A DNA stretch of 64,000 bases from Candidatus Tayloriibacteriota bacterium (GTDB lineage: Bacteria; Patescibacteriota; Minisyncoccia; Phycocordibacterales; PALSA-1337). Under the pieces are notes generated by a model. That model did no database searches. It was not told where the DNA came from and worked only from the letters and a program-made list of their open reading frames with translations. The stretch spans positions 19,309 to 83,308 of the forward strand of contig CALRAJ010000004.1 in NCBI GenBank assembly GCA_943350765.1, read 5' to 3'. The position numbers and the translations under genes were made by a program. Shown piece after piece: positions 25,641 through 37,799 of this stretch (positions are counted from its first letter, which is position 1; every line of letters starts with the position of its first letter).

Positions 25641-26429
25641 TTAGTTTGTACCCGTCTCACGACTCCACTTGGTATATAGTGCTTCGTTATCTTTATAATA
25701 TCCAGCCTTAAACTCTGGTGAATGTTTAAATATCTCAATCTCCTTGAAACCAACCTCGTCAGAAAGTAACGCATCCACTGACCGCTGAGCAACTTCATCC
25801 GGAGTTAGCCAATAGGTGAGATCGGCAAAAGGTCGCACCTTGAGCGCAGACTTCGTGACAGTAGAGCTCACATTAATAGAGAGCCCACTTACCCAATTCG
25901 GATAGAGGCCAACAGCCGACTGAATATACTGTCGACAGAGATTTTTTGCCTCACAGAAGCCCTCGATTACAAAGGGAGCATACTTATCAGGAATACCTCC
26001 AAGTAGAGCAACTTTTAGCTGAACAATCTTCCCCGACTCACAAACAGCATGTAGTATATTTATCAGATAACGCAGTGGGGATTTAAAGGTATTCACATTA
26101 GTATCGTATATATCCGGGTCAATAGTCTTCATCTTTTGGATAGTCGGGTATCCTCGGGGATCGTACTTGTCTACTCCGATTGTGTGTAGAAAGATCACCC
26201 TGTCATACTGGGCAAAATTAATAGACTTAAATGAACCCTCGATCGATCGCGCATCAGAAAGGTCACATCGCACTATTTGTATACATGGCGAGGTCAGAAG
26301 TAATGGAGTATTTCTAAGCACTGCAACAGTCTCTATCTGTTTCTCTGCAAGGACACTACAAAATTGCGTTCCTATTTCCCCTGCCGCCCCAGCAACAATT
26401 ACTATGGTTTTTATTTGTTTTATATTCAT
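25641..26429 (-). CDS. NAD(P)-binding Rossmann-fold protein (NmrA/SDR-like)
   Basis: N-terminal IVIVAGAAGEIG glycine-rich dinucleotide-binding motif. Confidence 0.55.
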   Translation of the reverse strand: MNIKQIKTIVIVAGAAGEIGTQFCSVLAEKQIETVAVLRNTPLLLTSPCIQIVRCDLSDARSIEGSFKSINFAQYDRVIFLHTIGVDKYDPRGYPTIQKMKTIDPDIYDTNVNTFKSPLRYLINILHAVCESGKIVQLKVALLGGIPDKYAPFVIEGFCEAKNLCRQYIQSAVGLYPNWVSGLSINVSSTVTKSALKVRPFADLTYWLTPDEVAQRSVDALLSDEVGFKEIEIFKHSPEFKAGYYKDNEALYTKWSRETGTN

Positions 26430-26542
26430 ACAATAGAAGTCTACCAGCTCTAGTTGACAATATCTAATAAAACTGTCTTTATATGTAGAAAGTAAACTGT
26501 TAGTTTACTTTCTACTATTAAAAAGCTATACTAGCCTTATAT

Positions 26543-27379
26543 ATGAGTCTTCTAAAACCAAGTACTCTCGAAGAAGTGGTGGTCAAGTTTTTATCGGAGG
26601 GCGAGAAATCCACAGCCACTCTACTTACAAAAATCAGAGAATCGGGCAGAGACATTACGAAACAAGGTTTCTATAAAGCTCTGCGGAAGTTAAAGGGCGA
26701 GGAGATCATTCTCGTATATCGAAAAATTGTTTCACTGGACACCGTTTGGATAAAGAAAATGGGTGATCTGTTTGAAGAAATCACCAAAGCACATGCACTC
26801 AGGCGAGATTCCTTCGATATCGTTGGACTTGACGACAGAGAAAGCATGACCTACTTATTTTCGAATGCAAAAAACCTGGATACTTTTTGGGGTTACATAC
26901 AGAGCATCCTCATACACAAAATAGAGCCGTGTGAGCCGATTTTTTCATACGACCCCCATTATTGGTTTTATATTGCCCGAAAAGAACGTGAACAGGAGCT
27001 ACTGAAAGAGATGGTCGAGCATAAACGCCAGTTTCTCATGACTGTCGGAGGTACTACCCCGCTCGACAAAGTCGTACGACAGGATTTCAACAACGACTAC
27101 CTTCAGTACAATTACAAAAAGATGTTTGACGCGCCTAATTATTACATTACCCTGCTCAGCGACTACATTATTGAAGTTACACTCGACATTTCTGTCTCGA
27201 CAGAGATAGAAAATATATATCAAAATGAAAAAGTGATTACTGCCGAAATCATTAATAGTTTAGACAAGCTTCTTTTATCTAAGGGCAGAAACAAAATAAA
27301 AATCTCAAGAAACAGAAAGAGAGCAGTTCTACTCCGCAAAAAATTCCAAAAGGATTTTTATAAACTGAGGGAAAAATAG
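26543..27379 (+). CDS. hypothetical protein with a predicted N-terminal winged-helix region
   Basis: ORF only; no recognisable catalytic motif. Confidence 0.4.
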   Translation: MSLLKPSTLEEVVVKFLSEGEKSTATLLTKIRESGRDITKQGFYKALRKLKGEEIILVYRKIVSLDTVWIKKMGDLFEEITKAHALRRDSFDIVGLDDRESMTYLFSNAKNLDTFWGYIQSILIHKIEPCEPIFSYDPHYWFYIARKEREQELLKEMVEHKRQFLMTVGGTTPLDKVVRQDFNNDYLQYNYKKMFDAPNYYITLLSDYIIEVTLDISVSTEIENIYQNEKVITAEIINSLDKLLLSKGRNKIKISRNRKRAVLLRKKFQKDFYKLREK

Positions 27380-27609
27380 CAGGCGGGAGACGCTTCGCTA
27401 TCTCACTCGCCCTCCGTTTGTCGAGCCCCTTAGAAACCTCGTCTACAGATGCACATCATCTACCGATGTGCCGAGGTTTCTAACACTCGAGTACTCGTTG
27501 TTTTCCTCCACGGGAAAACGCCTGTTTTCCCGACCCCTTTCCGGTTCGATTCTCCCTACCCACAAAAAATAAGAAAACCTCAGGTAAACTGAGGTTTTCT
27601 TATTTTTTG
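27380..27609 (+). repeat. conserved tRNA-Gly-associated module, copy 1 (structured; ends in an inverted mimic of the tRNA-Gly 3' half plus a terminator hairpin)
   Basis: About 70% identical to 31467-31658; conserved blocks ggcgggagacgcttcgctatc, gaaacctcgtctacagatgcacatcatctaccgatgtgcc, ggttcgattctccc. Confidence 0.6.
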
Positions 27610-27680
27610 TGCGGGACGGGAGAATCGAACTCCCACCAAGAGTTTGGAAAACTCCTATTCTACCATTAAACTAGTCCCGC
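27610..27680 (-). tRNA. tRNA-Gly (anticodon UCC)
   Basis: Manual cloverleaf: acceptor GCGGGAC/GUCCCGC, anticodon loop UUUCCAA, T-arm GGGAGUUCGAUUCUCCC. Confidence 0.85.
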
Positions 27681-27737
27681 CTACGCTTTTGCTCTGGCGG
27701 GGTAAAGCCCGCAAGACCTAATACCCACACATACTAT

Positions 27738-27770
27738 CAAACAAAACACTCCCTCGCAATGGAGGGAGTG
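27738..27770. terminator. bidirectional terminator hairpin
   Basis: aaacactccctcgcaatggagggagtgtttt. Confidence 0.6.
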
Positions 27771-28021
27771 TTTTGAGCTAGACTACTTTGCTTTTGAGCA
27801 AGTGCAAGCATTTGGAGCACACTTTGTACATGGAACTGCCATATTTTTTAAATCTCAGCTCTTTATCAAGCCGAAACAAATTAGGCTAATAAATGAAATT
27901 CGGGTTATTTAAACAATGCGCATTGCTCAAATAACAGCCTAAATTATACACCTAAATAACTCCAAAAATACAATAAAACAATACGTTGACGATATGTCAA
28001 TACCAGTATGAAGTCGTGGCT

Positions 28022-28372
28022 CTACTTCCTTTGAGAGTTGGCACGAGAGGACACCAGGAGCACTTTGTCAAAATCATCGTCCTTGACGACTTTATTTCGC
28101 TTTTTGAAACCGCAAACAACACATTCTTGCACCAAAACATAGTCCCCTGCCTTATTTTCCACCTCCACAGGTTTCATTAGTCCCCCACAGGTGGCTTTTC
28201 GGTCCCCGGGGTGAATATCCACATGTTTGCTGTAGAGACATTTCGGGCAATGATTGGTATAGCCATTCCCCACCACCTCATATTTGCAGTGTTCGCAGGT
28301 AAAATTTTCAATTGTGCGGGTGAATTGTTTAGACATAAGGTTTAGATTAGTATGAATGTAAAACAAAGTCAA
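28022..28372 (-). CDS. RNHCP-domain zinc-ribbon protein
   Basis: CEHCKYEVVGNGYTNHCPKCLYSKHVDIHPGDR...CGG...CVVCGFKK: paired CxxC clusters and the NHCPxCL(Y/W)SKHVD signature. Confidence 0.6.
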   Translation of the reverse strand: MTLFYIHTNLNLMSKQFTRTIENFTCEHCKYEVVGNGYTNHCPKCLYSKHVDIHPGDRKATCGGLMKPVEVENKAGDYVLVQECVVCGFKKRNKVVKDDDFDKVLLVSSRANSQRK

Positions 28373-28459
28373 AGTCGTGTTATGAGGACTTTTTAAAATT
28401 AAAAAACCCCGAGATCAATCTCGAGGCTTGTGTTAACTTTCTAAACCCGATTATCTTTT

Positions 28460-29383
28460 TTATACACTAGTAGGTAGTTCCACTTCTACATCAAACCGTG
28501 CTTCTTTGTAGTAAGCCACTACGAATTCCTCCTGACCAAGTTCATGGTAACTTCCCAGACTTTTATTGAAGCGTGAACGACAAGTCACAACAAGAAAAGG
28601 GTCTGGGGGTGGTAAAGTTTTCACAGGAGAGTAGTATCGAACATGTTCTTCCTTTAAACCTGGACCTTTCATCCGCAACTCTCTAGCAAGAAATCTCCTG
28701 TCATCACTATCCAGTAACATTACAGTGAAGGCTAGCTCTGAACAGCCCACTTCATCAGTGGCCCTCATTTTGATTTCAGCAGCGATTTCTATTACCATTT
28801 TTGGAATAGGGAGCCGGTGATCATATATCGGCTCTGTTCTCCAATAAAACAATGCCCCCTGACCAATATCCTTCAGTTTAAAGAGAGTATCGATTGGTAA
28901 AGGCATATTCGAGGCAGTATTGCCGTACACAACAATTGCTATCAGTCCAAAAACAAGAGCAAATCCTCCGAAGATATTGCCGATACCAAAGAACTTATAT
29001 ACTCCGTATCCAGTAGCAACAACGGGTACAAGGTATATCGCAACCGCACAGACAGCACACAAGAACTGCATGGCTCGAACACAAAGTCTGGCCGTCAGAA
29101 ACTTGCCTGCCATATACTCCATGAATGGTAAGATGCCGGCAGCAAGATTGTACTTAAACTCCAACCACGCCATCCTGCGACGCACTGCTTTGGCATCGAA
29201 GTATCCAATTCCCGCCTCGCGTAGCACTCTCTGGAGAGGTGGCTCCGTATGGCGCATCACCTCATCAAGATTATAACCAACCACTCTGGAAAACTTTTCC
29301 ATTTCTGCCGTACAGTGATCTTTGACATATTGAATTTTCATTGAACTATTTAATCGACTGATTCGTACCACAGCGATACTCAT
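28460..29383 (-). CDS. hypothetical polytopic membrane protein
   Basis: Several hydrophobic helices in the central third (AVCAVAIYLVPVVATGYGVYKFFGIGNIFGGFALVFGLIAIVVYG); terminator at 28399-28425. Confidence 0.5.
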   Translation of the reverse strand: MSIAVVRISRLNSSMKIQYVKDHCTAEMEKFSRVVGYNLDEVMRHTEPPLQRVLREAGIGYFDAKAVRRRMAWLEFKYNLAAGILPFMEYMAGKFLTARLCVRAMQFLCAVCAVAIYLVPVVATGYGVYKFFGIGNIFGGFALVFGLIAIVVYGNTASNMPLPIDTLFKLKDIGQGALFYWRTEPIYDHRLPIPKMVIEIAAEIKMRATDEVGCSELAFTVMLLDSDDRRFLARELRMKGPGLKEEHVRYYSPVKTLPPPDPFLVVTCRSRFNKSLGSYHELGQEEFVVAYYKEARFDVEVELPTSV

Positions 29384-29516
29384 CCTCGATTTCCTTTCAT
29401 TGTATAGATTATCACGAAATACTAGTTATGTAAATATATTATCGTCTATTCTAGTATATTTGCATATTATATCTATATAATGTATACTATTACTGACGAA
29501 TTATCTCGTCATCTAT

Positions 29517-30266
29517 ATGGAATATTTACTTGAAAAACTGGGTGTAAACAAAACCGACACAAAAATATATATCTTTCTTGTAGAGGTTGGCTGGTGTTCA
29601 GTTGCCCAAATTGCTCGGGATATCAATCTACCTCGACAGACTGTTTATAGCGGACTGAAACAACTTCTTTCTATTGGTATTGTGGAGCAAAGTAGGACAA
29701 AAAAGTCTGGACTTTTCTACGCTGATCCACAAATATTGATTAGTACCATCAATAAACACAATATCGAGCTTGAAAGGGCGAAATCTACTTTAGAGAAAAA
29801 CTTACCCGAAATATTGCTTCAAAAGAAGAGGTATACACAAAGTTACCCAACCATAACCTACTATGAAGGTGAAAAAAGCTTACAGCGGCTCTTCGATGAC
29901 ATTTTAAGCCAATTTAAAACTAAAAAAGATACTGTCTTTCGTGGGTTTGGGGTTAATACCGTGAAAGATAAGTTGAGTGGCTACGCAGAAAAATTTATCA
30001 AAGAACGAGCGAAATACGATGTTGAAACGCGCTTGATTATCGGCCTAGGTCCAGATGACTTTGGCATTTCAGGCGCCGATCCACTCGGGAGAGAAGTAAA
30101 ACGCATCCCAATCCCCTCTCAAGATGCTGGAGTGTATATGGTTGCCAATCGCCTCTATATATTTTCTTACAAAAACAAAAATGGTATCATGATCGAGGAC
30201 GAAAGCGTTGTAAAGTTTCTACGAGAAGTCTTTGATTATTTGTGGCAAGGAATGAATAGTAGGTAA
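29517..30266 (+). CDS. TrmB-family HTH transcriptional regulator
   Basis: N-terminus LEKLGVNKTDTKIYIFLVEVGWCSVAQIARDINLPRQTVYSGLKQLLSIGIV matches the TrmB wHTH pattern. Confidence 0.6.
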   Translation: MEYLLEKLGVNKTDTKIYIFLVEVGWCSVAQIARDINLPRQTVYSGLKQLLSIGIVEQSRTKKSGLFYADPQILISTINKHNIELERAKSTLEKNLPEILLQKKRYTQSYPTITYYEGEKSLQRLFDDILSQFKTKKDTVFRGFGVNTVKDKLSGYAEKFIKERAKYDVETRLIIGLGPDDFGISGADPLGREVKRIPIPSQDAGVYMVANRLYIFSYKNKNGIMIEDESVVKFLREVFDYLWQGMNSR

Positions 30267-30272
30267 TTTTGT

Positions 30273-30289
30273 CGGGGCGCCGGGAGTTT
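30273..30289. repeat. 17-bp direct repeat of the tRNA-Pro 3' end (gtcggggcgccgggag), att-like
   Basis: Identical to 30455-30470, the 3' end of the tRNA-Pro gene 170 bp away in the same orientation. Confidence 0.5.
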
Positions 30290-30455
30290 CTCCCTCGACT
30301 TTTTCCTCGCCGTCACTCGGAAAAGTCTGGGCACCAGCTCACATAATTTTCTACTGAAAATTATTGGCTCCGCTGTTCGAATCCCGACGTAAGCCGTACC
30401 CACGGCTTACTGCGCCCCGAGCGCGAAAAAACGGCATAAAGCCGTTTTTTCAGTG

Positions 30456-30538
30456 TCGGGGCGCCGGGATTCGAACCCGGAGTCACTTGTTCCCAAAACA
30501 AGCATGTTAGCCGTTACACCACGCCCCGATATATTTAG
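30456..30538 (-). tRNA. tRNA-Pro (anticodon UGG)
   Basis: Manual cloverleaf: acceptor CGGGGCG/CGCCCCG, anticodon loop UUUGGGA, T-arm CCGGGUUCGAAUCCCGG. Confidence 0.85.
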
Positions 30539-30685
30539 ATCACTCTCCTGAACCAATATATACTAGCACAAAGTCTTAAAAAGACATAGAAAATAGAAAT
30601 TTCTTTCAAGCATACACATATCACACAAAAACAATTCACGACCGTTAACTATTTATATATCTATAACCAGCCAATAGCAAAAATT

Positions 30686-31126
30686 TTATAAAATAATATC
30701 TTCCAAAATCTCCACACTTCCCTCTTTTGTTTCCTGACTTATATACACCGACGCTAGGTCAAATTGCCAGGATATGTCTTCTGACAGATTTTTCTCCAGA
30801 AGATAGCTTTCTATGGTCTTGGCTAGTCTTTTGACTTTTAGACCATGCATGTTGTCCTCGGGACGGTAGCTGTCACCCATTCCTGATGTTTCATGTGGAA
30901 CATTACCGCCAGTCGCCTCTGCGTTGCTACGGCGTACCAAGCAAGAAACACTCTTTACTTCAATAAAATGAAGCTTTCCTCCCCTTTTTGCCACAATATC
31001 GATCTCTCCCCACTTTTTGGTATAGTTTCGCTCGATTATTGAGAAACCTTGTTTTTTGAGAAATTTACATGCGATATCCTCACCGAGCTCACCCAATTTC
31101 TGTGTTTTTGATGTAAATAGTTTCAT
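30686..31126 (-). CDS. yraN: YraN (UPF0102) family endonuclease-like protein
   Basis: LGELGEDIACKFLKKQGFSIIERNY...GEIDIVAKRGGKLHFIEVKS matches the YraN signature; an insertion lies in the middle. Confidence 0.65.
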   Translation of the reverse strand: MKLFTSKTQKLGELGEDIACKFLKKQGFSIIERNYTKKWGEIDIVAKRGGKLHFIEVKSVSCLVRRSNAEATGGNVPHETSGMGDSYRPEDNMHGLKVKRLAKTIESYLLEKNLSEDISWQFDLASVYISQETKEGSVEILEDIIL

Positions 31127-31466
31127 ATGTAACACTTATTTATGTTTTCACGTGAAACATTTCATGTGAAATCGCCTATTTTTATCAATATACCTATATT
31201 TATAGGCCTATCTTTACAAAAAATACCTCATTTACGGACATTGTCATCGTCGACTATGAGCCATATTCTGTGTCCTTTATGAACACTGTCCACATAGTTA
31301 TCCACAGTTTTCCAAAAATAGCCTTGTTTTTAGGGGATAAGTTGAGTAAGTGGTTTGGGACAAAAGAAGAGGTACCCGATGGAAGTTTTAAAGGACATGG
31401 GGAAGTATAGCATGGATTATATAGAATATGGCGATAGATGCTTTGGCATCAAACTCAAAATGGAGC

Positions 31467-31658
31467 GGGCGGGGGAGACGCTTCGCTATCGAACTTCCTC
31501 GGAAACCTCGTCTACAGATGCACATCACCTACCGATGTGCCAGGGTTTTCCGACGCTCGTCGGGCTCGCTGCCTTCCTCAACAGGGAACTCCCGTTCCCG
31601 ACCCCATCCCCATTCGATTCTCCCTGCCTGACACAAAAAATCTTCGATTTATTTTTTG
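31467..31658 (+). repeat. conserved tRNA-Gly-associated module, copy 2
   Basis: Paralogous to 27380-27609; ends in ttcgattctccctgcc, the inverted image of the adjacent tRNA-Gly(GCC) 3' end. Confidence 0.6.
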
Positions 31659-31729
31659 TGCGGGCAGGGAGAATCGAACTCCCGTCTCAATCTTGGCAAG
31701 ATCGTGTTCTACCACTAAACCATGCCCGC
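31659..31729 (-). tRNA. tRNA-Gly (anticodon GCC)
   Basis: Manual cloverleaf: acceptor GCGGGCA/UGCCCGC, anticodon loop UUGCCAA. Confidence 0.85.
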
Positions 31730-31733
31730 ATAT

Positions 31734-32405
31734 CTATTTCTCAACAAGTGCTAAAAATTCTTTCTCCAGTAGTGCTAGCCATACTAACACTTTCTCTTTT
31801 AAAAATCTACTGGACACACCAGCTACTGCTGTGCCATACGCCAATTTCTTTACCTTGCTTCGACTTGGAATAATCATTGTTTTTTGAAAATTATCCCTAT
31901 CTAGAGACACTTTTTCTGACCAAAAACATTCAGTTTCGTTTATATTCATATCGAGATAGCCGATTACAGATAACCAGATTCTATCCTTTGGAACTCCACA
32001 TATATTCTCCAAAAAAGAAAGGAATATTTTAACTATGGCCGGCTCAGAATTTGAAATTCTCACCTGATATTTATTCGCCTTATCACCTTCTCCCCAATAA
32101 AGAAACATCCCAGCAAGAAATAGAGGATTTGTTTTTAGTGTTTGGAATTCTGTCTCAGCATCATCCTTCGCCTCGATATAAAGCTTGTTCAATCTTTCTC
32201 CTCTGATACGATTCAGATTCTTCAGACTTTCTGCATTTGTCTGTATGAGTTTTTTAGAAAGATTTTCCCTTATTTCGGCGGACCATTCCTTTTGACTAAA
32301 CCACTCAGAAAGAGTCGCTTTTGACATGCCTAACAAACTCCTAATTTCGTTATAGCTTTTGCCTTCTTTCCTTAGATTTATTGCAATTTCTTTATCTTTT
32401 CTCAT
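31734..32405 (-). CDS. hypothetical protein with an N-terminal HTH and a LAGLIDADG-like motif
   Basis: HTH GKSYNEIRSLLGMSKATLSEW; central LAGMFLYWGEGDK followed by a hydrophobic alpha/beta segment. Confidence 0.4.
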   Translation of the reverse strand: MRKDKEIAINLRKEGKSYNEIRSLLGMSKATLSEWFSQKEWSAEIRENLSKKLIQTNAESLKNLNRIRGERLNKLYIEAKDDAETEFQTLKTNPLFLAGMFLYWGEGDKANKYQVRISNSEPAIVKIFLSFLENICGVPKDRIWLSVIGYLDMNINETECFWSEKVSLDRDNFQKTMIIPSRSKVKKLAYGTAVAGVSSRFLKEKVLVWLALLEKEFLALVEK

Positions 32406-32494
32406 ACATTATAAGTATAGCACTATGGTTCGACTTACAGCAAACGCTTACGAATTAGCCTCTCGTCAAACGATGGATAGCTAACAAAAATCTG

Positions 32495-32566
32495 TGCACC
32501 TATCAGGACTCGAACCTGAAATAACGGTTCCGAAGACCGTTGTGATATCCATTTCACCATAGGTGC
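32495..32566 (-). tRNA. tRNA-Arg (anticodon UCG)
   Basis: Manual cloverleaf: acceptor GCACCUA/UAGGUGC, anticodon loop CUUCGGA, T-loop UUCGAGU. Confidence 0.8.
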
Positions 32567-36812: not shown

Positions 36813-37730
36813 CTACTTTTTACCCCTATTGTGAAAACTTTTATGTATGTCCCGCAGATGTTTATCTGTCACATGAGTGTATATTTGAGTAGTGCTAATA
36901 TTCGCATGTCCCAAAAGTGCCTGCACACTACGAAGATCTGCTCCATTTGAAAGCAAGTCCGTAGCAAAGCAATGCCTTATCACATGGGGAGTAACTTTTT
37001 TGGAAATACCTGCCGAAATAGCGTGGTGTTTTACAATACGCTCTATAGAACGGCGTGTCAGCCCAGCTTCTTCTCCAGCCCCTCGTTCTTTATTTATTTT
37101 TACAAACAGTGCATCGTCGATATCGTCTCTTTTGTCCAAATAAGCTTTGACCGAAGACTTGGCGGTATCAGATAGGAAAACCACCCGCACTTTTTCACCC
37201 TTTCCACGAATAGAAAACTCGTCCCGACGAATATCCAAATCTCTCGATAGGGAACACAGCTCAGAAACACGCAGACCTGTAGAAAAGAGAAGCTCTAGTA
37301 TTGCCCTATCACGAAGTCCTTGAAGAGTACCTGTCTTTGGTGCATTGAGAAGTCGAACAAGATCCTCTGGAGAAATGAGGTCTAATGATCTTTCAGAAGT
37401 TTTTGCTAACTCGATCGCCTCTGGCGAAAGGGAAGAGACACCAAGCTTTTGCAAATACTTTAAAAAAGCTCTGAGTGCAATAAGATAATAGTTTTGGGTC
37501 TTTTTTTTTAAAGTTTCTCCTGTGGCACGATTATTACCAGTAGACTGTCTATTGAGCCACAGGCGAAATTCTCGTACTAATGTTTCAGTAATACTTTTGG
37601 GATCTGTAGTTTTAGCAAAGACTAAAAAACGGGTCAAATAATGGTCATAGTTTTCGACAGTTTTTATACTGCGACCCTTTTCTATCTCTACATATTCGAG
37701 AAATTGTGTTTTTAGCTCCAAAAGATTCAT
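36813..37730 (-). CDS. xerC: Xer-type site-specific tyrosine recombinase
   Basis: N-terminal SAM-like ENYDHYLTRFL; C-terminal catalytic HVIRHCFATDLL...LLGHANISTTQIYTHV. Confidence 0.8.
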   Translation of the reverse strand: MNLLELKTQFLEYVEIEKGRSIKTVENYDHYLTRFLVFAKTTDPKSITETLVREFRLWLNRQSTGNNRATGETLKKKTQNYYLIALRAFLKYLQKLGVSSLSPEAIELAKTSERSLDLISPEDLVRLLNAPKTGTLQGLRDRAILELLFSTGLRVSELCSLSRDLDIRRDEFSIRGKGEKVRVVFLSDTAKSSVKAYLDKRDDIDDALFVKINKERGAGEEAGLTRRSIERIVKHHAISAGISKKVTPHVIRHCFATDLLSNGADLRSVQALLGHANISTTQIYTHVTDKHLRDIHKSFHNRGKK

Positions 37731-37799
37731 GTCGCACAATATTATAGCACGAAAACCGTCTGCTCTTTGCAACAGGCGGAGTTTTGTCGATTTTTTACT

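Follow-up and report, generated by a model that had tools for sequence, protein, structure and literature searches.

Genes and gene order between the two tRNA-Gly genes

The 3.8 kb between the tRNA-Gly(UCC) and tRNA-Gly(GCC) genes of the 64-kb stretch of DNA analysed here (the window) contain genes for an RNHCP zinc-ribbon protein, a 307-residue protein (mem307), a TrmB-family regulator, tRNA-Pro(UGG) and YraN (Table 1). HMM searches confirmed the RNHCP, TrmB and YraN assignments of an earlier sequence-only reading, all of them with scores above the Pfam gathering cut-off. The RNHCP protein is likely to start at the ATG at 28336, which gives a length of 104 residues. mem307 has two adjacent hydrophobic stretches (residues 98–158) and is thus a membrane protein, but hardly the polytopic one previously described. 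It matched no Pfam or NCBIfam family; a search of 5.8 billion clusters returned only mem307 itself and a full HMMER search gave five remote homologues. As had been stated, the interval encodes no integrase: integrase and recombinase families were found in none of its five ORFs with Pfam and in none of four of them with NCBIfam. The Xer-type recombinase that had been pointed out nearby is present 5–6 kb away; it is a syntenic gene found in 59 related loci. Farther along, orf223 was considered as a LAGLIDADG homing endonuclease, an assignment rejected for want of any LAGLIDADG fold or profile match.

Gene order was compared with 80 related genome loci. The related Paceibacteria loci that cover the interval share the order RNaseY–HU–tRNAGly(UCC)–RNHCP–tRNAPro–YraN–tRNAGly(GCC)–tRNAArg–CCA–ExoIII–Xer. 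The RNHCP gene lies between tRNA-Gly(UCC) and tRNA-Pro in most of them, and the arrangement of RNHCP, tRNA-Pro, YraN and both tRNA-Gly genes persists even in loci whose neighbouring CCA-adding enzyme is only about 60% identical. Judged by gene order, most of the interval is an ancestral Paceibacteria gene string with small lineage insertions; the greater part of the supposed island is core genome and the adjacency of RNHCP and a membrane protein an accident of insertion.

With regard to an empty site, only mem307 and TrmB are missing from the related loci (all 80), whereas RNHCP, tRNA-Pro and YraN belong to the conserved order. In the closest relative (L001; 88% identity of the CCA-adding enzyme) only 56 nt separate RNHCP from tRNA-Pro. 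The GC content of the insertion is unremarkable. The membrane protein travels with TrmB, and the pairing with RNHCP that had been proposed is not supported: in another genome (L340) the same divergent TrmB/mem307 pair, at 41% and 33% identity, is flanked by RsmE and trigger factor. L002 carries a different TrmB-like cassette at the site that mem307 and TrmB occupy in the window. mem307 and TrmB are a separate, lineage-specific two-gene cassette of regulator and membrane protein that landed beside the repeat T2 described below.

Table 1. Features of the interval and its surroundings, in window coordinates
Feature	Position	Strand	Evidence and remarks
Type B mini-element behind tRNA-Gly(UCC)	27380–27569	-	T2 arm about 27380–27403, core, A′ arm 27544–27569; inverted repeats I1 and I3, direct families D2–D4
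Perfect 23-bp palindrome, terminator-like hairpin with A-run and T-run	27561–27611	.	Separates tRNA-Gly(UCC) from its element; inverted repeat I2 with 100% complementarity
tRNA-Gly(UCC)	27609–27680	-	ARAGORN, Rfam
RNHCP zinc-ribbon protein	28022–28336 (ORF 28022–28372)	-	PF12647, E = 8e-29, 99.9 bits (cut-off 24); ancestral, syntenic
Lineage-specific 1.9-kb insertion with mem307 and TrmB	28339–30269	.	No counterpart in L001
mem307, 307 residues	28460–29383	-	Hydropathy, alignment; very small family
TrmB-family winged-helix regulator	29517–30266	+	PF01978, E = 4e-11, 43.0 bits (cut-off 25.6); divergent partner of mem307
T2 of tRNA-Pro element (the 'att-like' repeat of the earlier reading)	30270–30285	-	Repeats, in direct orientation, the 16 terminal nt of the tRNA-Pro region (3′ strands of T-stem and acceptor, discriminator, 2 nt); direct family D10
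Type A conserved core	30286–30374	-	Multi-helix junction; one hairpin with loop GAGTGACGGCGAG
A′ of tRNA-Pro element	30375–30421	-	Inverted copy of tRNA-Pro from T-loop through 3′ terminus; inverted repeats I6, I16
Terminator-like hairpin AAAAAACGGC-TTTAT-GCCGTTTTTT	30426–30450	.	Between tRNA-Pro and A′; sequence, inverted repeat I6
tRNA-Pro(UGG)	30455–30528	-	ARAGORN, Rfam
YraN/UPF0102	30686–31135	-	PF02021, E = 2e-17, 63.6 bits (cut-off 23.6); ancestral, syntenic
Type B mini-element behind tRNA-Gly(GCC)	31466–31640	-	Inverted repeat I4
tRNA-Gly(GCC)	31658–31729	-	ARAGORN, Rfam
orf223, HTH and alpha/beta domain protein	31734–32405	-	Lineage-variable; always directly 5′ of a tRNA
tRNA-Arg(UCG)	32494–32566		ARAGORN, Rfam
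Xer-type tyrosine recombinase	36813–37772		

Structured elements behind tRNA-Pro and both tRNA-Gly genes

The tRNA-Pro gene had been recognized earlier, with limits (30456–30538) that ARAGORN and Rfam correct. The direct repeat of its 3′ end also exists, although not as 17 nt at 30273–30289: it is an exact 16-nt match, TGTCGGGGCGCCGGGA, between T2 and 30454–30469, in direct orientation with a start-to-start spacing of 184 nt, and corresponds to the complement of tRNA-Pro positions 60–74 plus one base. Further copies, which had been thought worth seeking, were searched for with up to two mismatches, and the 64 kb contain these two alone. None of 100 dinucleotide shuffles had two or more matches to TGTCGGGGCGCCGGGA; the repeat is significant against shuffled sequence.

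The unit bounded by the repeat (30270–30453) is ∼185 bp long and non-coding. T2 is the distal arm of a non-coding structured mini-element of ∼150 nt, designated type A, that adjoins the tRNA-Pro 3′ end. Its A′ arm is interrupted at the acceptor/T-stem junction by a hairpin, H0 (30389–30410), and the predicted fold, which closes A′ on T2, has an energy of -72.7 kcal/mol (z = -5.1). Compensatory changes occur in 18 of the 30 pairs of the type A consensus fold. A leave-one-out nhmmer profile of type A matched 30272–30394 (E = 3.7e-19) and nothing else in the window.

Both tRNA-Gly genes are followed by elements of a second type, B, which are 79% identical to each other over 143 nt and were recovered by leave-one-out nhmmer at 27420–27569 (E = 1.9e-11) behind tRNA-Gly(UCC) and at 31474–31637 (E = 5.4e-14) behind tRNA-Gly(GCC). 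The fold of the former has an energy of -70.3 kcal/mol (z = -3.2). Mini-elements are thus present at three of the four tRNA genes of the window. The hairpins that follow the tRNA genes, including the palindrome, were not called by a simple terminator scan of the window. With the Rfam 15 covariance models only the tRNAs pass the gathering score; by E-value there are weak hairpin-type matches, such as those of miRNA models to the palindrome.

These dimensions bear on the proposal that the interval is the decayed scar or the cargo of a tRNA-targeting integrative element, with attachment sites either at the tRNA-Pro 3′ end and its copy or at the tRNA-Gly modules. The tRNA 3′ end is indeed directly repeated, and the lineage-specific mem307 and TrmB genes abut the repeat (TrmB stop at 30266, repeat start at 30270). 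The two copies, however, enclose 168 nt of non-coding DNA and leave the genes outside, and neither mem307/TrmB nor NmrA/orf278 has a copy of the tRNA tail on its far side. Composition is normal, there is no integrase, the Xer gene is conserved and syntenic, and the same repeat architecture recurs without gene cargo at dozens of tRNAs. The tRNA-Gly modules, for their part, are not the two ends of one element: they represent different isoacceptors, occupy conserved positions and have a mini-element each. Reading the duplicated tRNA end as the footprint of an insertion at a tRNA gene was broadly sound, but not the 3.8-kb scale or the gene content attributed to it; the integrative-element model is already contradicted by synteny and we consider it scarcely credible.

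Architecture and distribution of the element family

The three elements of the window and their relatives share one layout, in which an intact gene end (T1) is followed by a terminator-like hairpin or spacer (X), a copy of the beginning of T1 in inverted orientation (A′), a conserved core and a direct copy of T1 (T2). Pairing between A′ and T2 closes the core. Each element copies the end of its target, the adjacent gene, in both orientations. Profiles of types A and B built without window sequences match the window elements. Of 233 tRNAs, 44 are followed by an exact copy of at least 12 nt from their own final 24 nt, whereas none of 247 has such a copy upstream. Three core families, A, B and C, gave 27, 16 and 18 nhmmer matches in relatives (61 in total); all 47 among the matches listed lie 7–177 nt downstream of a tRNA on the same strand, and tandem arrays also occur. 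A metagenome scan matched at least 120 loci, with 110 type B copies; for 72 of these a tRNA lies no more than 400 nt upstream, in 71 cases on the same strand, and about 30 tRNA species are represented. Other type B copies follow tRNA-like 3′ ends, apparently of tmRNA, or adjoin protein genes (L33, the 3′ end of a second gene, and the 5′ ends of a glycosyltransferase and an RNase H gene), and these too keep the T1-X-A′-core-T2 layout. Small structured elements stand behind a substantial share of the Paceibacteria tRNA genes examined, and the family is widespread among these very small bacteria of groundwater. No counterpart was found in Rfam or in the searchable literature; as that literature is incomplete, the family is only provisionally, and apparently, undescribed.

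The arms vary with the target (Gly, Pro, Arg, about 30 tRNAs and protein genes), with duplications of 14–50 nt. A′ is closer to the local T1 than to T2 in 64 of 69 elements, and at L33 11 codons differ synonymously between T1 and T2 and two non-synonymously. Occupancy is patchy: at orthologous tRNA sites, 66–88% of the genomes lack all three modelled types and the remainder have A, B or C. The tRNA-Gly(GCC) gene, for example, is followed by type B in the window and in L002 and by type A in L001. The nucleotides left unpaired at the type B junction hardly vary among more than 100 copies. Conserved helices show compensatory changes; hairpin H1 has 13 G·T and nine A·C pairs and the closing stem two and five, respectively, and this lack of an excess of G·T over A·C fits pairing at the level of DNA.

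An origin by local rearrangement with no mobile entity would have replication template switching at natural palindromes (the terminator hairpin and the T-arm) produce a direct–inverted–direct triplication of the tRNA end, that is, a small tandem inversion duplication. Tandem inversion duplications and quasi-palindrome template switching do share this order of copies and a first junction at a palindrome. T1-X-A′ is an almost perfect palindrome with the terminator loop at its centre (I2, I3, I4 and I6), and A′ tracks T1 as quasi-palindrome correction predicts. The second junction, however, holds a foreign core of 60–150 nt; such cores form three families and are conserved among distant genomes and at targets unrelated to one another, which local copying cannot create. 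As T2 and T1 of protein genes moreover differ in the way orthologues do, we regard this origin as very improbable.

Nature of the elements

The family, its architecture and fixed orientation, the target-derived arms, the patchy occupancy of orthologous sites, the many unrelated targets and an ortholog-like divergence of T2 from T1 are established. The elements are probably non-autonomous mobile elements that target gene ends, set in an ancestral gene string with small lineage insertions. They would insert above all at tRNA 3′ ends, from the T-loop onward, and the duplicated target end would keep the gene whole, as do attL/attR of integrative elements or a single-crossover integration. We infer that they move as DNA, that the target-derived stem may serve as the recombination substrate, as a folded hairpin like integron attC or CTX-phage attP, and that a host enzyme would act in trans. 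The elements encode no recombinase or transposase and none could be linked to them; the genomes examined yielded neither an excised form, nor a strictly empty and filled pair of near-identical genomes, nor identical copies at different loci.

The near-invariant type B junctions and the fixed orientation to tRNA transcription would suit a functional RNA equally well. Structured non-coding RNAs might be made from the tRNA strand, with a core that binds, for example, a ligand or protein, or with a regulatory switch between A′:T1 and A′:T2 pairing. The closing stem would then mimic the neighbouring tRNA in its acceptor/T-stem minihelix, and RNase P, RNase Z and the CCA-adding enzyme would therefore trim and stabilize the transcript. 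The same-strand position directly downstream, the covarying helices, the conserved junctions and the stability of the folds agree with this, as do the extent of T2 at tRNAs (T-stem 3′ strand through discriminator) and the position of H0, where the D and anticodon arms of a tRNA emerge. The core is, however, also found at protein-gene ends, with arms made of coding sequence, and at gene 5′ ends, where it can point either with or against the gene; occupancy is patchy and core types swap at orthologous sites, G·U is not in excess of A·C, and a terminator-like hairpin stands between tRNA and element. Likewise, tRNA-like structured RNAs (tmRNA, YrlA/Y RNA and viral tRNA-like structures) resemble the elements in that the closing stem reproduces acceptor and T-stem at tRNA targets, but the elements have no T-loop, D arm or anticodon arm, their arms at protein genes are not tRNA-like and no Rfam family matches them. 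On balance, we consider the RNA interpretation unlikely.

If the elements are mobile, as we favour, they would explain many partial copies of tRNA ends and oversized spacers in otherwise compact genomes, as well as the hot spot where accessory cassettes land and, perhaps, why single tRNA genes are flipped so often. The question is then how one conserved core gains arms for dozens of targets while encoding no enzyme, and an answer might bring to light a guided form of recombination. On a more speculative reading, which we consider unlikely, the elements could represent a new class in which the insertion site is programmed by the target-derived hairpin stem (A′ pairing with T), a reprogrammable, nucleic-acid-guided integration at gene ends of CPR bacteria through a host recombinase, which would carry T2 between genomes as a fossil of the previous target.

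Among known mobile systems, integrative elements and genomic islands at tRNA genes (tyrosine-integrase attL/attR, T-loop sublocation) likewise duplicate the sequence from T-loop/T-stem to 3′ end directly, leave the target intact, can accumulate in tandem and can replace protein-gene ends by a diverged copy. The mini-elements differ in their size (0.15–0.25 kb, with no integrase or other gene), in the obligatory A′ and conserved structured core, and in that one core family serves about 30 tRNA species and protein genes. MITEs and palindromic repeats (REP/BIME, Correia, RPE and BOX) are similarly small, non-coding, strongly folding, multi-copy, patchy and located at gene ends or after terminators. 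Classification as MITEs was nevertheless rejected: the terminal inverted repeats come from the target and change with it, and the duplications are 14–50 nt in length and can be ortholog-diverged, a short fixed target-site duplication not being seen. Integron attC and the CTX-phage attP(+) used by XerCD (IMEX) share an imperfect hairpin that closes a variable or structured region and, if the mini-elements are mobile, a non-autonomous nature or use of a host recombinase and orientation-specific insertion; the mini-elements combine a variable stem with a conserved loop, whereas in attC the reverse holds.

Mini-elements behind the tRNA genes

The direct repeat at a tRNA end that the sequence-only reading had reported is real; it is 16 nt long (TGTCGGGGCGCCGGGA) and occurs in the same orientation at 30270-30285 and 30454-30469. 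These are the only two copies in the 64 kb with up to two mismatches allowed, and chance is disfavoured, as a two-match outcome was obtained in 0 of 100 shuffles. The repeat belongs to a ~185-bp mini-element behind tRNA-Pro(UGG), one of three in the window, and is its footprint. All four tRNA genes of the region lie on the minus strand, and tRNA-Pro and both tRNA-Gly genes are each trailed, on their own strand, by a terminator-like palindrome, an inverted copy of the tRNA from the T-loop to the 3' end (A') and a strongly folding stretch of ~100-150 nt that ends in a direct copy of the tRNA 3' end (T2, the original end being T1); for tRNA-Pro, T2 is the 16-nt repeat. This layout rests on inverted repeats I2-I4, I6 and I16, and when folded on the strand of their tRNA the window elements reach -67 to -73 kcal/mol (z down to -5.1). 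In the window and 80 related loci, exact copies of a tRNA's own tail (at least 12 nt from the last 24 nt) were found on the downstream side of 44 of 233 tRNAs and on the upstream side of 0 of 247.

On reading the sequences, three conserved core types were distinguished between the arms, with compensatory changes in the core helices. Searches with nhmmer gave 27 copies of type A, 16 of type B and 18 of type C, and among the matches listed 47 of 47 follow a tRNA of the same strand at a distance of 7-177 nt. With the window sequences left out of the models, all three window elements are still recovered, type A at 30272-30394 (E = 3.7e-19) and type B at 31474-31637 (E = 5.4e-14) and 27420-27569 (E = 1.9e-11). 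Rfam returned tRNAs and weak hairpin-type matches only, at both gathering and E-value thresholds, and the searchable literature on CPR/Patescibacteria (mobile and repeat elements, tRNA introns and tRNA-like RNAs) yielded nothing relevant; the family is apparently undescribed and is widespread in Paceibacteria.

Judged from the sequence, a hammerhead or other small ribozyme, a group I/II intron, a retron, a DGR and an IS200/IS605 omega-RNA are unlikely readings: the core motifs do not fit, the cores are of insufficient size, and neither a reverse transcriptase nor TnpB is present. For type B, a micro-ORF (an SD-like GGAGG followed by TTG) was ruled out, as insertion variants disrupt both spacing and frame. 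In type B copies at tRNAs (e.g. L323, L288 and L223) the T-loop in T2 systematically gives way to GTGAGATA, often with a GCGAAGC mini-hairpin after it; GTGAGATA faces the T-loop complement TCGAAC of A', so that a conserved asymmetric internal loop forms at the core base. Type B copies at protein genes are without this feature.

Target genes and the duplicated ends

A metagenome scan with the type B motif matched at least 120 loci, and nhmmer gave at least 110 type B copies among the matches listed; 72 of these 110 have a tRNA within 400 nt upstream (71 of the 72 on the same strand, ~30 tRNA species). The remaining copies lie either behind tRNA-like 3' ends (loci L330 and L296), which we read from their sequence as tmRNA, or at protein-gene ends, namely the 3' ends of ribosomal protein L33 and of a second gene and the 5' ends of a glycosyltransferase and an RNase H. 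The order T1-spacer-A'-core-T2 is uniform at the tmRNA-like and protein-gene copies. Where the target is a protein gene, the arms consist of coding sequence, and T1 and T2 differ as orthologues do: for L33, three codons are identical, 11 synonymous and two nonsynonymous, and the two glycosyltransferase copies differ, by eye, in a serine codon (TCG versus AGT). Divergence at this level speaks for an origin of one copy in another genome. These copies, together with the patchy occupancy of orthologous sites, lead us to infer that the elements are probably mobile; their targets are not confined to tRNA genes.

The main alternative is that the elements make a functional RNA with a tRNA-like minihelix as its cap. 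Fixed orientation, exact T-stem/acceptor boundaries and near-invariant junction nucleotides speak for such an RNA, but the protein-gene copies and the patchy occupancy weaken it (depending on which of the four orthologous tRNA sites is taken, 66-88% of genomes are without the three modelled types and the others carry A, B or C), and we consider it unlikely. Counts of G·U versus A·C pairs (13 versus 9 in hairpin H1, 2 versus 5 in the closing stem) show no bias that would assign a strand; the lack of a G·U excess fits pairing at the DNA level better than RNA, with small numbers.

What the sequences show is the layout itself: the conserved core is closed by a stem of the target's own end, the target gene is intact and a second, often diverged, copy of the end lies beyond the core. 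This product is expected of site-specific or single-crossover integration of a DNA that itself brings in a copy of the gene end, following attL/attR logic. In such an integration the stem between A' and T would be the recombination substrate, by analogy with a folded attC or CTX attP, and a host enzyme would presumably act in trans because the elements encode nothing. A' is closer to the local T1 than to T2 in 64 of 69 elements, and palindrome correction may keep it matched to T1. Among viral contigs, motifs of all three cores gave chance matches only; by nhmmer, none was a real element or had a tRNA as neighbour.

Element types differ between genomes at orthologous sites. Behind tRNA-Gly(GCC), type B is present in the window and in L002 (the second-closest relative) and type A in L001 (the closest); tandem elements occur in L001 (type C then type A, behind tRNA-Pro) and L079 (type B then type A). 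A lineage-specific internal hairpin (direct families D2-D4) common to both window type B copies points to exchange within the genome. By eye, T2 behind tRNA-Gly(GCC) in L034 looks like the tRNA-Gly(UCC) tail. No empty-versus-filled pair was found among close relatives (L022, L034 and others): where L034 has type B behind tRNA-Gly(GCC), its close relative L022 carries a different insert of ~130 nt (L022:9720-9850) that has no recognisable arms and may be a further element type beyond the three models.

Ancestral gene order and accessory cassettes

Window proteins and tRNAs were mapped onto 80 loci around homologues of the CCA-adding enzyme (59-88% identity). The order RNaseY-HU-tRNAGly(UCC)-RNHCP-tRNAPro-YraN-tRNAGly(GCC)-tRNAArg-CCA-ExoIII recurs across the clade, with L004 and L021 as very compact versions. 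A Xer-type recombinase comes next after ExoIII in 59 related loci (58-79% identity) and is therefore a conserved syntenic gene. The ~3.8 kb between the two tRNA-Gly genes had been taken for an integrated island, a reading borne out only in part: the tRNA-end copy is probably indeed an insertion footprint, but by its gene order the interval is mostly ancestral, with RNHCP, tRNA-Pro, YraN and both tRNA-Gly genes syntenic and mem307 (a 307-aa membrane protein) and the window TrmB absent from 80 of 80 loci. GC content across the region is flat, and the inserted gene pairs show no tRNA-tail copy at their far ends. Relative to the window, the block of tRNA-Pro and its element is inverted in L001.

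Features of the region and segments extra relative to the closest relative, L001 (window positions)
Feature	Position	Strand	Remark
tRNA-Gly(UCC)	27609-27680	minus	
tRNA-Pro(UGG)	30455-30528	minus	
tRNA-Gly(GCC)	31658-31729	minus	
tRNA-Arg(UCG)	32494-32566	minus	
orf223	31734-32405	minus	25 homologues in L003-L080
NmrA-like+orf278	25596-27434		extra segment
mem307+TrmB	28339-30277		extra segment
orf223 segment	31731-32492		extra segment

The RNHCP, TrmB and UPF0102/YraN assignments were borne out. mem307, with two hydrophobic stretches, is nearly an orphan: it has no match in family searches and falls in its own cluster only among 5.8 billion clusters, and a full HMMER search gave five remote homologues (an alignment of six sequences). 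The best of these (33% identity) is divergently oriented to a TrmB of 41% identity (E = 1e-72), between RsmE and trigger factor with no tRNA nearby. The functional pair is therefore TrmB with mem307, and not, as had been proposed, RNHCP with the membrane protein; mem307 and TrmB form a separate accessory cassette. At the corresponding site in L002 (L002:125-3811), where tRNA-Pro is missing before YraN, a TrmB-like regulator is divergent from a three-gene ABC transporter, so that the position is a hot spot for accessory cassettes.

A second lineage-specific insertion (25641-27379) comprises an NmrA-like NAD-binding protein (262 aa, minus strand) and orf278 (plus strand, no family match) and stops 1 nt short of T2 in the Gly(UCC) element; in parallel, TrmB stops 3 nt short of T2 in the Pro element. 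The outer edge of T2 may be a favoured landing site. TrmB and orf278 share no similarity and are not paralogues.

The window is from a CPR bacterium of the Paceibacteria/"Taylorbacteria" group. All 11 proteins of the region are encoded at 100% identity on a 20.9-kb stretch of GCA_964952345.1; the nearest other genomes are Candidatus Taylorbacteria and Patescibacteria MAGs. RNHCP is annotated as a 51-aa fragment in three loci of window-identical sequence (L081:11207-11362, L082:2186-2341 and L083:4299-4454) and as 104 aa in a fourth public assembly (L084:2071-2385); this looks like a difference in gene calling and not in sequence, as all four are 100% identical over 116 aa by tblastn.

Nested tRNA-Pro, orf223 and tRNA inversions

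Outside the window, tRNA-Pro(UGG) is nested in a second tRNA-Pro-like gene at L034:8560-8880, L022:8580-8910, L030:3560-3890, L017:8280-8600, L023:8400-8730, L044:1-310 and L038:1-260. The 5' half of the inner tRNA (positions 1-39) is repeated 16-20 nt upstream and its 3' half (41-74) ~53 nt downstream, the leader is complementary to the trailer, and compensatory changes are seen between genomes in a conserved hairpin (CCAGAAACAT..ATGTTTCTGTGG). Joined in silico, the outer halves give a tRNA-Pro (UGG or GGG) of ambiguous anticodon; ARAGORN with introns made no call for it.

orf223 has 107 homologues of ~220 aa, the few with a named source being Paceibacterota/Pacebacteria MAGs, and its presence differs between genomes. 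In the AlphaFold model (pLDDT 93.7) an N-terminal HTH and a long helix are combined with an alpha-beta-beta-alpha-beta-beta-alpha domain; Foldseek gave no significant match in the PDB. No duplicated tRNA 5' part was found upstream of orf223, which lies directly 5' of a same-strand tRNA (Gly-UCC, Gly-GCC or Arg) in 26 of 26 cases.

In the stretch from HU to the CCA-adding enzyme of L001-L080, single tRNA genes flip (Pro, Gly-GCC and Arg, rarely Gly-UCC) and Gly-GCC and Arg trade places; the protein genes on either side are fixed. The downstream mini-element always inverts together with its tRNA; at tRNA-Gly(GCC), elements are carried in 11 of 21 flipped versus 10 of 41 unflipped cases.
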